This document shows, piece by piece, positions 26,486 to 51,770 of a stretch of DNA of 64,000 bases. The stretch covers positions 3,168,001 to 3,232,000 of the forward strand of contig OY762492.1 of the NCBI GenBank assembly GCA_963665845.2, read 5' to 3'. The translations under genes were made by a program, and so were the position numbers. Position 1 is the stretch's first letter. Each line of letters begins with the position of its first letter. This DNA is from Candidatus Poribacteria bacterium (lineage in GTDB: Bacteria; Poribacteria; WGA-4E; GCA-2687025). The notes beneath the pieces are model-generated. The model ran no database searches, was not told the origin of the DNA, and saw only the letters and a list, made by a program, of their open reading frames with translations.

Positions 26486-27094
26486 TTAACGCCCGCGTTT
26501 GATCTCCGCCCAGCTGGCAGCCAAACGGCCGGCAGGCTCCACATTCAGTTCCCCGATCACGTATCTGAAGTACACGTCGTCCGCTTCGTCGTTTGGACCG
26601 CACCATGCCCAAAACGCTTCGCTGTCGGGGTCTTTCAGATGGTTGCGCATGGCGCCCGCCCCAAAGCCCCAGATGCCTCCGCCAAACTGCTCATAGTAGG
26701 TCAGCTCCATCCATTCCGAATCGTCAAAATCGCCTGTTTCCCATCCGTCGTTTCGAGAGGCGATCGCCTCTCCCGCGTCGCATTTCCATCGAGGGTCGTC
26801 GGGATTTGTCGAAAGATATTCGCCGTCATCGAGAATGATGTCCGCCAGAAATCCGCCTTTGCCGGCGTTTCCAGGTTCCGCGTCATGAACGTAGATTCCG
26901 ATCAGCGCGTAGCCTCGGTTGTCCAGCTGAAATTCGGTCACGGTCGGAGCCTGCCAGTTGTTTCCCTCGGCGATCATTTCGCCGTTGTGAAACACCTGCC
27001 ATGCGTTGTCTCCGCTCACGCGAACCGCCGCCGACTGCGCCGCAGAGGAAATCAGCAGCGCCAGCGCGCCGGCAATCCAAAAAATTCGTTTCAT
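26486..27094 (-). CDS. Secreted hypothetical protein (lectin/beta-sandwich-like) with C-terminal VEPAGRLAASWAEIK motif
   Basis: Signal peptide ending AQS-AA; GDN, FDDSEW; GGAG RBS; terminal motif shared with the TolB-like proteins. Confidence 0.75.
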   Translation of the reverse strand: MKRIFWIAGALALLISSAAQSAAVRVSGDNAWQVFHNGEMIAEGNNWQAPTVTEFQLDNRGYALIGIYVHDAEPGNAGKGGFLADIILDDGEYLSTNPDDPRWKCDAGEAIASRNDGWETGDFDDSEWMELTYYEQFGGGIWGFGAGAMRNHLKDPDSEAFWAWCGPNDEADDVYFRYVIGELNVEPAGRLAASWAEIKRGR

Positions 27095-27165
27095 CGTCTA
27101 TTCTCCTGATGGTTGAGTGTCTGCCCATGAGTACACATTTCTATGCTCAAGTCAACAGAATTCCG

Positions 27166-27507
27166 CTGACGACAATCTCTATAGGCGATGATGTACGAAA
27201 ATCCTGTTTGAGTAGGGCTAATCGTCGTTCGGCGCGCGGTTAAAACCCCCCCAGCCCCCCTTTCAAGGGGGGAGTCCAGAAATCCCGCAACCCTACCCGC
27301 CGTCATTCCCGCCCCTGCGGTAAAACGTGCGGGAATCCAGAGGCCCGCGGAAAACCCCCCAGCCCCCCTTTCAAGGGGAGTCCAGAAAAGCCGCCCCCCA
27401 TAGCCTGCCCCCGCGCAAGCGGGAATCTAAAGTTTTTCCAGACAACCTCCGCATTCCAAAACGCCTCTCTAAAATCAACATCATCGTCTAAGAGACAGCC
27501 CCGTCAG
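27166..27507. mobile_element. MITE-like composite element with imperfect terminal inverted repeats
   Basis: Left ctgacgacaatctctataggcgatgatgt vs right reverse complement ctgacggggctgtctcttagacgatgatgt; interior built from both palindrome families. Confidence 0.6.
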
Positions 27508-27581
27508 ATTTTTTGTAGCCGAACGGCGCGGATGTACGTTATAATAAGCAGTTGCGTTTCAAACGATGAAAGGACTGAACT

Positions 27582-28124
27582 TTGAAAAGACTGATTTATG
27601 CGGCGCTCGCGTTGGCGCCGTTGTTTCTGCTGGTCTCGTGCGGCGAAGACGAGCCTGACCCGCCGGACATTGATCATGAGAAGATCATTGCCGATGTGAA
27701 CGCCCAACTGGACACGGTCGGCATCGTCTTTAATGCCAACCTCACTACAGGCGAGGTTGTCACCTTTAACTTCAAAACCGCCGACACGGCTGAAAACAGG
27801 GCTTTGTTGAACGTGCTTGCCCCAAACGCCCCGTCCGACGGGCGCCTCATCGTCCGATCCAAGGATGATGACCCCGACTCTGAGGAAGCGGCGCCTTTGG
27901 AGCTCGGCAACATGAAGCTGTCGGTTGCGTCCGCAACGAGCGTCGCCATGAATGTACAATTCATCGGCATCGTGACGATCGATGAAAATGGAACGCCGGT
28001 CGGACTCGTTCCGCATGATGAGATTGCCGACGAAACGTTCGCGATCACATATCCGCTCAAGGATGGCGGGCTTGAGATCGACGGCGTCTGGTATGCGGCG
28101 GCGCCGCCGGAGGAAACTCCCTGA
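27582..28124 (+). CDS. Hypothetical lipoprotein (paralog A)
   Basis: TTG start after AAGGA; lipobox LLVSC; shares FNFKTADTAENRALL and GGLEIDG with the next gene. Confidence 0.8.
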   Translation: MKRLIYAALALAPLFLLVSCGEDEPDPPDIDHEKIIADVNAQLDTVGIVFNANLTTGEVVTFNFKTADTAENRALLNVLAPNAPSDGRLIVRSKDDDPDSEEAAPLELGNMKLSVASATSVAMNVQFIGIVTIDENGTPVGLVPHDEIADETFAITYPLKDGGLEIDGVWYAAAPPEETP

Positions 28125-28234
28125 CGCGGTTTGAAGCGCGGGCCGGCTCTTCAGCCGGCCCCGCGCCGCTGCGGATTCCGCATTTCTGTCGGTTATGTTA
28201 CTGTTTACGGGCAACCTGAACCTGGGAGAACCTC

Positions 28235-28780
28235 ATGAAGTGGGCAATGTTTGCGGCGGCGGTCGTTGGCGCCGCGTGTTTGATCTCGTGCGGCGAGGAT
28301 GAACCGGAGCCGATTCCAGAGCCGACCCCTCAGGAGATCATTGACAAGGTGAACGCGCGTTTGGACGCGCTTGGCGGCGTCTGGAATACCGGCGGTTCCG
28401 CCGGCATGGTCGTCTCGTTTAATTTTAAAACGGCCGACACGGCAGAGAACAGGGCTTTGTTGGAAGTACTGGCGCCGAACGCCCCGACCGACGGACGCCT
28501 CATCGTCAGAACCAAGCAAACCGTAGAACAGTTCACGGCTGGGGACGTTCCGCCGATGGAGGTCGGCAACATGAAGCTGTCGGTCGAATCCGATACGAGC
28601 GTCGCCATGAATGTGGAATTCATCGGGACGGTGACGATCGATGAAAATGGAACTCCGATCAGCGTCGACACGAGCAATACAGGCTCCGAAACGTTCCTGA
28701 TCACATACCCGATGGCGCAGGGCGGGCTTGAGATCGACGGCGCCTGGTATACGGCAGTAGAGGTAGAGGAATCTCCCTAA
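28235..28780 (+). CDS. Hypothetical lipoprotein (paralog B)
   Basis: GGAG RBS; lipobox LISC; EPEPIPEP linker; clear tandem paralog. Confidence 0.82.
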   Translation: MKWAMFAAAVVGAACLISCGEDEPEPIPEPTPQEIIDKVNARLDALGGVWNTGGSAGMVVSFNFKTADTAENRALLEVLAPNAPTDGRLIVRTKQTVEQFTAGDVPPMEVGNMKLSVESDTSVAMNVEFIGTVTIDENGTPISVDTSNTGSETFLITYPMAQGGLEIDGAWYTAVEVEESP

Positions 28781-49916: not shown

Positions 49917-50070
49917 CGTCCATTCCTTTCGGCAGACGCCCAGCCGTTTTATTGAGGCGCAGGTTGCCGTCTGTCCAGATGGCGCGGCCGTCGGTTCCGC
50001 CTGTTTTAGTTTTAACAGACGCGCTTCCCTGTCCGTTTCGTTTATGGGTCGAATCGGATGCGGCGTCTAG

Positions 50071-50190
50071 GGTCAATTCAGCTTGCGCGGGATGACCCCG
50101 TTTTCACGGGGGGAGGCTATGAGGGCGCGGGAATCCAGAGGCGCTGCAGAAACCGTCCGCCCTTGCGGCAAAACGCGCGGAAATCTTAGA
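50071..50190. repeat. Degenerate palindromic repeat cluster
   Basis: gcttgcgcgggatgac, ccccgttttcacgggg, gcgggaatccagaggcg. Confidence 0.65.
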
Positions 50191-50289
50191 GGTTTTACGC
50201 TCAAAAAGTTGCAGCGCGGATAAAACCTAAGGTACAATGGCGATGCGGCTTGGGAGAAGTTTTTAGCGCATCGGTAAAAAAGAGGTTGA

Positions 50290-50643
50290 CTCGAAAACGA
50301 AGCCTCGGATGTTTATATGATGAATCCTGACGGTTCCAACGTTGAGCGTCTCACATCCCGCAAAGACGGAAGACGGGCAAGAGTCAGCGACTGGTCGGCG
50401 GACAGCAAGTGGGTTCTGTTCAATATGACTGACAACTCGCCGTACGAACTTTACCGCATTCATATAGAGACGCGGGAGATCGTGCGCATTTCCAAAGGCG
50501 GCGCCGCGACTTGGGTTCATGCGGGCATGAGCCGCTTCCTTTCCGTCAACCCGGCGGGCAAGAAGCATGCGCAATGGGGCGAGGTGAAAGCGGCGGACGC
50601 TGAAGATACGCCGACGGAGGAAAACGCCCCCGCCGATGAATGA
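50290..50643 (+). pseudogene. 3' remnant of a TolB-like propeller gene
   Basis: DVYMMNPDGSNVERLT..WSADSKW..AGMSRFLSVNPAGKKHAQWGEVK; no signal peptide; in-frame TGA at 50287. Confidence 0.7.
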
Positions 50644-50681
50644 CGCGCAGCCGCGGCGCCACTCTCAGAAAGGAGCATGAC

Positions 50682-51770
50682 ATGACGTCTATTGCCTTCT
50701 CAAAGCGTCGCGCCGTTCTTGCGGCGGTCAGCCTGCTCATTCTGCTTTCCGCTGACGCCGTTGGAAACGATCTTGAACCGCTCGAAGATGTGACGAAGCT
50801 GGAAAAGCCGACCATCAGCTACACAGACAACTCTGCGGGAGGCGTGTTTCTCATCGACTGGGACGGACAAAACAACCGACTCTGGCTGAAGGGAGAATAC
50901 GGACTTCCAATATGGAGCATGGACGGCAAATACGTCTCGATCGGCGGCGGCGTACCGGACAAGTTCTACGGCGATTACGTTCTGAACCTCAGAACAGGGG
51001 AAGAAGTAAACGTGACGAAGAGGATCATCCAGAACATGGGCATCGACTTCTGGCGCGAATTCGACATACTTAGCAGCCGATGGATGCCCGGGGGGCAGCG
51101 GATGGTCTGCAGCGTCGGGGGAGACTTTCTGCCGCCTCATGGCCCGCCCAGAGATCTCTATATGCTGACAAACAGCGCGGGCAAGATGGTCAACATCACG
51201 AACACGCCGGGCAAATCGGAAAATCAGATGAGCGTGTCTCCGGACGGAAAAATCGCGTTTTCTGCGAACGCGAAGGAGCCGTATCATCACAGCCATCAAC
51301 TCGACATCTTCACCATGAACGCGGACGGATCGGATGTGAAAAACATCACCAACACCCCCGATGTGTTTGAATCCTCTCCTAGGTGGTCTCCGGACGGCAA
51401 GAAGATCGCGTTCAACGGCGAGAGAGGCATTTTTATGATGGATCCGGACGGCTCCAATATGGAGCGGATCACACAAGACAAGGGTCTTTGGAAAGAACTC
51501 ACTTTTTGGTCTCCGGACAGCAAGTGGCTCTTATACGGGATGAATCCGGACAACGTTCACTTGGGCTACCGCGTTGTGCGGGTGAATGTGGATACGAAGG
51601 AGATTGTTCGCGTTACGCCCGAAGGCGTCAACGCCGTGTTCGGGTCCTGGGTCTTGGCGGGCAAGAGCCGCTTCCTCTCCGTTGACCCTGCCGGTAAAAA
51701 AAAAGCGGAATGGGGAGCGTTGAAAGCGGCGGACCGTAGCGATAATCAAACTCCGCAAGACGGCGACTGA
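50682..51770 (+). CDS. Secreted TolB-like (PD40) beta-propeller protein with C-terminal VDPAGKKKAEWGALK
   Basis: AAGGAG RBS; signal peptide ADA-V; LEDVTKLEKPT cap; NITNTP, WSPDG. Confidence 0.88.
   Translation: MTSIAFSKRRAVLAAVSLLILLSADAVGNDLEPLEDVTKLEKPTISYTDNSAGGVFLIDWDGQNNRLWLKGEYGLPIWSMDGKYVSIGGGVPDKFYGDYVLNLRTGEEVNVTKRIIQNMGIDFWREFDILSSRWMPGGQRMVCSVGGDFLPPHGPPRDLYMLTNSAGKMVNITNTPGKSENQMSVSPDGKIAFSANAKEPYHHSHQLDIFTMNADGSDVKNITNTPDVFESSPRWSPDGKKIAFNGERGIFMMDPDGSNMERITQDKGLWKELTFWSPDSKWLLYGMNPDNVHLGYRVVRVNVDTKEIVRVTPEGVNAVFGSWVLAGKSRFLSVDPAGKKKAEWGALKAADRSDNQTPQDGD

Follow-up and report, generated by a model that had tools for sequence, protein, structure and literature searches.

A stretch of 64,000 nucleotides from the genome of a Candidatus Poribacteria bacterium (contig OY762492.1), referred to here as the window, contains five open reading frames (ORFs) whose translations all terminate in the same short peptide, LSV[DEN]PAG[KR]xxAxW[GA]x[LIV]K. 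This peptide, hereafter the tail, is portable and independent of the fold to which it is attached, and it is strictly C-terminal, confined to exported proteins, under protein-level selection and present throughout the phylum. The source genome measures 3.98 Mb in three contigs and is 90% complete. The original prediction, made from the letters of the window, had listed five ORFs with the motif; all five were found in place with the motif at their end (Table 1), and the observation is both confirmed and larger than first noted.

Tail-bearing genes of the window

The four complete ORFs start with signal-peptide-like N-termini by a hydrophobicity heuristic, as had been claimed for them. Three (366, 377 and 376 amino acids, aa) are PD40 (TolB-like) propellers according to Pfam and NCBIfam, with scores below the TolB equivalog cut-off; for the incomplete ORF, a 108-aa remnant, Pfam gave nothing and NCBIfam no more than weak matches to TolB-family models (E 0.011 and 0.031), and it was grouped with the PD40 paralogs by sequence. 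The two propellers encoded on the reverse strand end in LSVDPAGKKKA[EQ]WGA[LV]K, followed by 15-17 acidic, Ser or Pro residues.

The remaining protein, 202 aa long and terminating in ...LNVEPAGRLAASWAEIKRGR, matches no Pfam family. Its structural model is a CBM67/POL-lectin-like beta-sandwich, a different fold from that of the propellers, as the original prediction held; Foldseek matches it best to a lectin of Pleurotus ostreatus and to the carbohydrate-binding module of a rhamnosidase from Streptomyces. The tail is present on all 120 listed homologs of this protein, typically in the form PVEPxxKLATTWAxIK, and those with names all belong to Candidatus Poribacteria. The same is true of the named homologs of the window proteins in general, the names being those given by their sources. 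Longer fused forms of the 202-aa protein were not found, which is weak evidence, and a word-indexed profile search for longer proteins returned only close relatives, the named ones being from Poribacteria.

Table 1. Tail-bearing genes of the window and their tails (window positions)
Feature	Position	Strand	Basis and remarks
Exported CBM67/POL-lectin-like beta-sandwich, 202 aa, tail-bearing	26486..27094	-	ORF, translation, AlphaFold2, Foldseek
Tail LNVEPAGRLAASWAEIK + RGR of the 202-aa protein	26489..26548	-	Translation
Exported PD40 (TolB-like) propeller paralog, 366 aa	34015..35115	-	Pfam PD40 6e-25; partial TIGR02800 match; AlphaFold2
Tail LSVDPAGKKKAEWGALK	34063..34113	-	Translation; acidic extension after it at 34018-34062
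Exported PD40 paralog, 377 aa	35154..36287	-	ORF, Pfam, NCBIfam; ATG start at 36281
Tail LSVDPAGKKKAQWGAVK	35208..35258	-	Translation; 17-residue acidic extension after it at 35157-35207
PD40 paralog 3' remnant, 108 aa, last blade and tail, without signal peptide	50317..50643	+	Tail at 50539-50589
Exported PD40 paralog, 376 aa	50640..51770	+	ORF, Pfam, NCBIfam; likely start 50682
Tail LSVDPAGKKKAEWGALK	51675..51725	+	Translation; 14-residue extension after it at 51726-51767

The remnant lies directly 5' of the intact 376-aa paralog, with an overlap of 4 bases, and no PD40-like reading frame was found upstream of it in positions 49950-50320. The PD40 paralogs, both those of the window (34015-36287 and 50640-51770) and about 37 elsewhere in the genome, also share a near-invariant P-L-E-D-V-T-K-L-E-K-P-T-[IL] just past the signal peptide, and the conservation of this N-terminal motif equals that of the tail.

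Occurrence and position of the tail in the genome

When the whole genome is considered, the tag has a general consensus of about 19 residues, [LT]SV[DEQN]PxGK[LA]AxxW[GA]x[LIV]K. Regular expressions matched 27 ORFs in a strict form and 65 in a looser one, with the motif always at most 17 residues from the end of the ORF. A hidden Markov model (HMM) was then built from 53 distinct 19-residue seeds, and full-length matches of at least 10 bits were counted; it retrieved 113 ORFs genome-wide, in all of which the match lies 1-26 aa from the stop. Carriers of the tail make up 110 of 2,954 genes, about 3.7%, by a crude gene call. No internal full-length copy occurs among the 113, the internal rows being sub-threshold partial matches, several of them on PD40 repeat signatures, and the control with reversed ORFs gave 0 matches. 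Some paralogs under the HMM threshold have a degenerate tail, in which the ...W[GA]x[LI]K half is the main part preserved. Because the conserved V, P, G and K are encoded by differing synonymous codons, the tail reflects selection on the protein and is not a repeat of the DNA.

The conserved Lys is invariant across the tail alignment. In about 70 carriers outside the PD40 class it lies 1-6 residues from the stop (mode 2), and Arg accounts for 60 of the 180 residues that trail it. The roughly 40 PD40 paralogs continue for 7-17 residues (once 26) past the Lys, and this extension is rich in Glu, Ala, Asp, Pro and Ser. Carriers finish on R, Q, K, E and similar residues. With only 0-6 mostly polar or basic, or 7-17 acidic, residues past the motif, the tail has no transmembrane helix, in agreement with the original prediction. 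The 15-residue core carries a mean net charge of +1.4 (+2.3 in the PD40 paralogs). The possibility that it forms an amphipathic membrane helix was considered and is not supported, as its helical hydrophobic moment is not above that of shuffled sequences (0.26 against 0.31, and 0.17 against 0.32).

Carrier proteins and their export signals

Once the signal peptide and the tail had been removed, 109 carriers fell into 21 clusters that BLASTP did not link at 1e-5, the largest being PD40 (40), LamG (23) and DUF1080-like (9). Most carriers are single-domain binding modules. Among 30 representatives, the Pfam families matched over their own cut-off were Laminin_G_3, 3-keto-disaccharide hydrolase (DUF1080), CBM9, CBM4_9, NPCBM, DUF4960, PKD and AhpC/TSA; GH43_C2, galactose-binding-like pieces and one cohesin row (E 8e-4) scored below it, and 12 representatives had no Pfam family.

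By the hydrophobicity heuristic, a signal-peptide-like N-terminus is present in 102 of 107 carriers; among size-matched control genes the figure is 153 of 400. The carriers without an apparent signal peptide are fragments, wrongly chosen starts, or one redoxin-like selenoprotein read-through, whose frame extends upstream past a TGA located at a UxxC motif and reaches a clear signal peptide. Since the apparent exceptions are of these kinds, no convincing cytoplasmic carrier is left among them. The HMM count that had been proposed as a check on the tail thus returned what was expected of it, namely many ORFs (113) on diverse domains, in which the match is C-terminal without exception and a signal peptide is nearly always present.

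Two tandem AhpC/TSA-like genes outside the window, on contig C1 of the genome (C1:2982281-2983300 (-)), both contain an in-frame TGA as the first codon of a UxxC redox motif (TGA at C1:2982677-2982679), and a tRNA-SeC gene is present at C1:523705-523800. The downstream copy has a signal peptide and a C-terminal tail, and public gene calls for it start past the TGA, so that the called protein is 123-124 aa long. The two proteins are probably exported selenoproteins.

The tail relative to the folded body

AlphaFold2 models were obtained from modest alignments, of 57 sequences for the CBM67-like protein and 26 for the PD40 protein. In the 202-aa protein, residues 21-180 form the beta-sandwich body with a predicted local distance difference test score (pLDDT) above 90, and tail residues 181-202 lie outside the fold as coil plus a short helix (191-201) with pLDDT of about 58. 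In the 366-aa PD40 protein, pLDDT stays above 90 through the propeller, to about residue 333, and is under 50 for residues 339-366, from which it follows that the tail is not a strand of the propeller. A look-up of the tail part in the ESM Atlas was uninformative, the best score (0.78) belonging to an unnamed 21-aa cluster.

Among 26 PD40 paralogs, the majority fraction reaches 0.88 in the tail block, WV.AGKSRFLSVDPAGKKKA.WG..K, against 0.55 in the body, which bears out the earlier statement that the tail is more conserved than the propeller in the TolB-like proteins. In the orthologous CBM67-like family, tail conservation is slightly below that of the body (0.69 against 0.79), with V, W and K invariant.

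Catalogues, literature and distribution across genomes

At E up to 10, neither the five whole proteins nor 12 isolated tails matched any sorting-relevant model of NCBIfam (release 20) or Pfam; the tail peptides gave only three chance-level rows, VMAP-M8 at E 0.09 and DUF321 twice at E 0.17. Full-text literature searches on Poribacteria, taken without supplementary Tables S8 and S9 of Kamke et al. 2014, turned up no description of the tail. The claim that it differs from the catalogued sorting signals is upheld by the NCBIfam and Pfam result.

A 24-column tail profile was used for the genome searches, with at most 57 candidates scored per genome in the phylum sample. It marks at least 100 places in the genome under study and matched all 151 Poribacteria genomes and all 22 genera, including three genomes of another class. 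That similar tails are frequent on Poribacteria proteins had originally been stated, and it holds in every genome of the phylum searched as well as for the 113 ORFs counted here. In five distant or low-count Poribacteria genomes, all 38 rows lie 0-4 residues from the stop, and in six of these rows, which represent 5 distinct genes, the protein ends exactly at the Lys, an arrangement seen in none of the carriers of the genome under study. In a search of 1.84 billion representative proteins, only 61 matches met the E 0.001 threshold, a small number that is due to the shortness of the tail model; 60 of the 61 matches are C-terminal, and the exception is an unrelated repeat.

Outside the phylum, the profile matched none of five single genomes, none of 121 Chloroflexota and none of 121 Bdellovibrionota genomes. 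One weak internal partial match came from 121 genomes of the Zixibacteria phylum and one weak match from 121 Armatimonadota genomes, which makes a total of 2 weak partial matches for the four outside phyla (484 genomes).

The tag also occurs on DNA that IMG/VR classes as viral. A degenerate DNA pattern gave 2 matches on viral contigs, one true tail and one internal chance match. The product of the ORF at 2492-3583 (-) of IMG/VR contig L158 is an esterase-like protein of 363 aa that has a signal peptide and ends in ...GARGKLPTTWGEMKRQ.

Type IX-like components and C-terminal domains in the same genome

The genome also encodes proteins that resemble parts of a type IX secretion system (T9SS). 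At E up to 0.01, TIGR04183, the model of the T9SS C-terminal domain (CTD), has 53 matches; 51 exceed the curated cut-off, nearly all matches lie on ORFs longer than 460 aa, and tail-bearing proteins outside the PD40 class measure at most 464 aa. Of 50 CTDs picked by a PNPF motif, 46 end in ...LK, to be compared with the [LIV]K of the tail. A SprA_N match over cut-off lies at C1:937272-937658 in a 2225-aa ORF. Several PorV-like barrels score below the curated cut-offs (one at C1:3740912-3741817), the best of which is kept in 41 of 41 Poribacteria genomes, and two PorU-like ORFs of about 2000 aa (C1:1860670-1864761 and C1:1293092-1297708), with scores of 235 and 219 bits, likewise remain below theirs. 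The neighbours of PorV-like genes at 30 loci showed nothing consistent and included no tail genes. According to passages of Kamke et al. 2014, repeat proteins of Poribacteria bear TIGR04183-like domains, and single-cell genomes yielded no structural Por genes (PMC3909097).

Two CTD proteins of 1504 and 1604 aa (C1:241512-251050 (-)) are 79-84% identical over their first ~210 residues to a 409-aa tail-bearing protein (C1:1739067-1740296 (-)). Because these N-terminal residues are shared at such identity, paralogous passengers can be said to carry either the tail or the T9SS-type CTD, and on this sequence comparison the C-terminal signal is exchanged between recent paralogs. The idea that the tail is a collapsed CTD, or mini-CTD, was ruled out by hhalign, which aligned it to the 50 CTDs of the genome with a probability of 0.15%, that is, with no relation.

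Gene neighbourhoods

Among 548 neighbours of the 110 tail genes (72 tail loci), the only enriched families were Zn-dehydrogenases and xylose-isomerase-like proteins (sugar-isomerase-like TIM barrels). Sulfatases, PhyH, ABC ATPases, insertion sequence (IS) elements and restriction-modification (R-M) genes are other neighbours of tail genes.

Two further features were noted inside the window. Tandem S55-like paralogs of about 650 aa, at 40004-41986 and 41991-43931 (+), have signal-peptide-like N-termini and a SpoIVB-type peptidase S55 motif region. A DNA methyltransferase-like gene at 29796-30938 (-) matched one Poribacteria record only; its nearest relatives in the species genome collection, at 44-60% identity, are spread across unrelated phyla (Armatimonadota, Elusimicrobiota, Burkholderiales endosymbionts and Bdellovibrionota), and it looks like a mobile R-M gene.

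Interpretation and alternatives

The interpretation that we favour, at slightly better than even odds (about 0.55), is that the tail is a portable tag for sorting or anchoring, which a conserved partner in the envelope likely reads once the protein has passed Sec export. Tagged proteins would first be exported by Sec, after which the tag would act as a linear recognition peptide, neither a domain nor a membrane anchor, with the invariant V, P, G, K, W and K in contact with one specific reader. The outcome would be the placement of lectin-like modules at the cell surface or in the envelope, where they may work together with the nearby sulfatase and sugar-catabolic genes. The most concrete candidate for the reader would be the divergent T9SS-like outer-membrane apparatus of this genome. 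The six identity-conserved positions argue against generic binding to membrane or charge, and the acidic extensions tolerated behind the Lys in the PD40 class show that no free carboxylate is needed there.

The original prediction had gone as far as a recognition tag of a lineage-specific secretion or surface-attachment system. This sorting or attachment interpretation is partly supported: its sequence-level predictions held, as did the restriction to Poribacteria among the genomes searched, while we infer the function and the machinery, for which the neighbourhoods gave no reader. The observations that might have overturned the prediction did not appear, since neither an internal full-length copy, nor a convincing cytoplasmic carrier, nor a propeller strand, nor a characterised sorting domain accounts for the tail.

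Several results weigh against the tag reading, in particular against its link to a T9SS-like apparatus. No reader or machinery gene emerged among the neighbours at the 72 tail loci, and the PD40 paralogs accept 7-17 acidic residues past the tag. The GldL and GldM models found no match in this genome, in a search that had no positive control, and the hhalign comparison just described found no relation between tail and CTDs. CTDs occur in 41 of 41 genomes of the Zixibacteria-phylum sample, yet only the one weak tail match was obtained there. As regards distribution, the tail appears to be essentially absent elsewhere and Poribacteria-specific among the phyla searched only, with Planctomycetota, Verrucomicrobiota, Bacteroidota, Latescibacterota and most other phyla outside the sample. 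Finally, known T9SS signals are described in passages of Lauber et al. 2024 as folded seven-stranded domains recognised by shape (PMC10994853).

The first alternative is a more specific version of the tag reading, in which the tail is a short T9SS-type export signal for small single-domain cargo, read by the SprA-, PorV- and PorU-like apparatus through the shared terminal [LIV]-K. It draws on the occurrence of SprA_N, PorV-like, PorU-like and TIGR04183 matches all in one genome, on the division of CTDs and tails between long and short proteins outside the PD40 class, on the swap between paralogs and the LK end of most CTDs, and on passages of Lauber et al. 2024, according to which type A CTDs have just one residue that is almost invariant and important for function, a Lys near the C-terminus (PMC10994853). 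This version is nevertheless unlikely, given the hhalign result, the difference between some 19 unfolded residues and a folded seven-stranded CTD, the lack of tails in the CTD-rich Zixibacteria-phylum sample, tail and CTD counts that do not track (5 tails and 17 CTDs in genome G001, 4 and 28 in genome G128), PorV- and PorU-like scores under the curated cut-offs, and GldL and GldM that went undetected in the search without control. It is quite unlikely that the tail dispenses with a dedicated reader and anchors its carriers directly, either as a cationic peptide on lipopolysaccharide, anionic polysaccharide or lipid, or through a covalent bond of its Lys to peptidoglycan, after the model of Braun's lipoprotein (Lpp). 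The positive charge of the core and the frequent Arg behind it would suit such an anchor, as would the several proteins of distant genomes that end exactly in ...WGxIK and the lack of a reader gene near the tail loci, but conservation of six residue identities over a phylum and more than 20 families exceeds what generic charge or lipid binding needs, the hydrophobic moment is that of shuffled sequences, and most copies have 1-17 residues past the Lys, unlike Lpp.

Three other explanations fare worse. Self-association, with the tail bundling lectin-like modules into multivalent and possibly mixed assemblies much as the foldon of phage fibritin does, would give binding modules avidity without any machinery, and a low pLDDT in the monomer is what an element that folds on assembly should have; such a role is very unlikely in view of the highly cationic PD40 tail (GKKKAxWGxxK), its few hydrophobic positions and a core that is not amphipathic, and an oligomerisation motif requires neither a strict C-terminal position nor use on exported proteins only. 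A periplasmic protease site, serving as a processing or turnover tag for S41 (Prc-type) enzymes or the exported S55-like peptidases of the window, would explain the variable residues past the Lys as a leaving group, and the S55-like tandem (40004-43931) does lie between tail genes. No evidence ties these peptidases to the tag, however, some proteins end exactly at the Lys, and a degron on about 3.7% of genes, on binding modules only and across a phylum, is so hard to rationalise that we consider this highly improbable. The view that the tail is no functional unit at all, and instead a domain strand, a motif that arose by chance or a repeat of the DNA at the 3' ends of genes, could point to the resemblance between its SV-DP-x-GK half and the PD40 repeat signature WSPDGK, which also receives the weak partial HMM matches; it is refuted by the exclusion of the tail from both folds in the AlphaFold2 models, the 21 unrelated clusters, the empty reversed-ORF control, the varied codons and the presence of the tail in 151 of 151 genomes.

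A sorting or anchoring tag with an envelope reader therefore remains the interpretation that we prefer. Going beyond it, we propose tentatively, and with more doubt than confidence, that the tail may mark a new kind of pathway, in which an unfolded 19-residue label without transmembrane helix and a dedicated putative receptor or translocon, perhaps an offshoot of a T9SS-like system, would bring about 3-4% of the proteome, as stand-alone lectin-like modules, to a surface that meets sponge and algal glycans. What is new here is the T9SS-like context, the exchange of tail and CTD between paralogs, the shared terminal [LIV]-K, the negative controls in four phyla, one of them rich in CTDs, and the dismissal of an amphipathic helix and of a mini-CTD as explanations.

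Poribacteria are dominant uncultivated symbionts of sponges and known degraders of sulfated glycans. That about 110 of their exported binding modules in each genome bear one and the same portable tag implies a common step, which would organise much of their glycan recognition at the surface or in the periplasm. To our knowledge, no bacterial sorting signal is short, unfolded and free of a transmembrane helix; as the architecture of the tail is unmatched, identification of its reader would add a new route, or a new class of signal for a T9SS-like system outside Bacteroidota. In practical terms, the motif provides a rule by which hundreds of proteins now called 'hypothetical' in each genome can be annotated, as well as a peptide bait for pull-downs, and its sequence may guide antibody or labelling reagents against this uncultured phylum.

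Comparison with known sorting and anchoring systems

The peptides that target proteins to encapsulins and microcompartments act on cytoplasmic cargo without a signal peptide, unlike the tail, whose carriers have a signal-peptide-like N-terminus in 102 of 107 cases and are otherwise fragments or mis-starts. The beta-signal of outer-membrane proteins is a terminal aromatic residue that closes a beta-barrel, whereas tails finish on R, Q, K or E and their bodies are soluble beta-sandwiches or propellers. Braun's lipoprotein, in which the C-terminal Lys is linked to peptidoglycan as the last residue, resembles the carriers in being exported and in having a conserved Lys at its C-terminal end or close to it, but 0-17 residues follow the Lys of the tail and the carriers are not lipoproteins.

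Another parallel is offered by the dockerin-cohesin pair, as the dockerin is a portable C-terminal module that joins many glycan-active proteins to a common partner. The dockerin is, however, a folded, duplicated Ca-binding domain of about 70 aa; no dockerin match was obtained, and cohesin is represented by one below-cut-off row (E 8e-4) in one carrier. The tripartite C-terminal sorting signals (LPXTG/sortase, PEP-CTERM/exosortase, GlyGly-CTERM/rhombosortase and MYXO-CTERM) combine a motif with a hydrophobic transmembrane segment. Like the tail, they are short C-terminal signatures on exported proteins, lineage-restricted and multi-copy, often with basic residues after; the tail differs in having neither a hydrophobic transmembrane segment nor an NCBIfam sorting-signal match, and in the acidic extension of its PD40 versions.

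As for how an unstructured peptide could be read, the S-domain of secretins is a short disordered C-terminal peptide that folds on a dedicated lipoprotein partner, the pilotin, and is carried to the outer membrane. This behaviour fits the low pLDDT and the short helix predicted for the tail, although the S-domain serves one protein family with a known partner and the tag is found on more than 20 families.

The type A CTD of the T9SS (TIGR04183, Por_Secre_tail) is much longer than the tail, as had been pointed out originally: about 70-100 residues folded into a seven-stranded beta-sandwich, against about 17-19 unfolded residues (about 19 for the consensus). The two have no HMM or profile similarity, and the tail is absent from the CTD-rich outgroup phylum. 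Both are nevertheless placed at the extreme C-terminus of Sec-exported proteins, lack a transmembrane helix and are attached to many unrelated passengers; each finishes in, or shortly after, a conserved [LIV]-K, and in this genome the two signals coexist and are swapped between paralogs.

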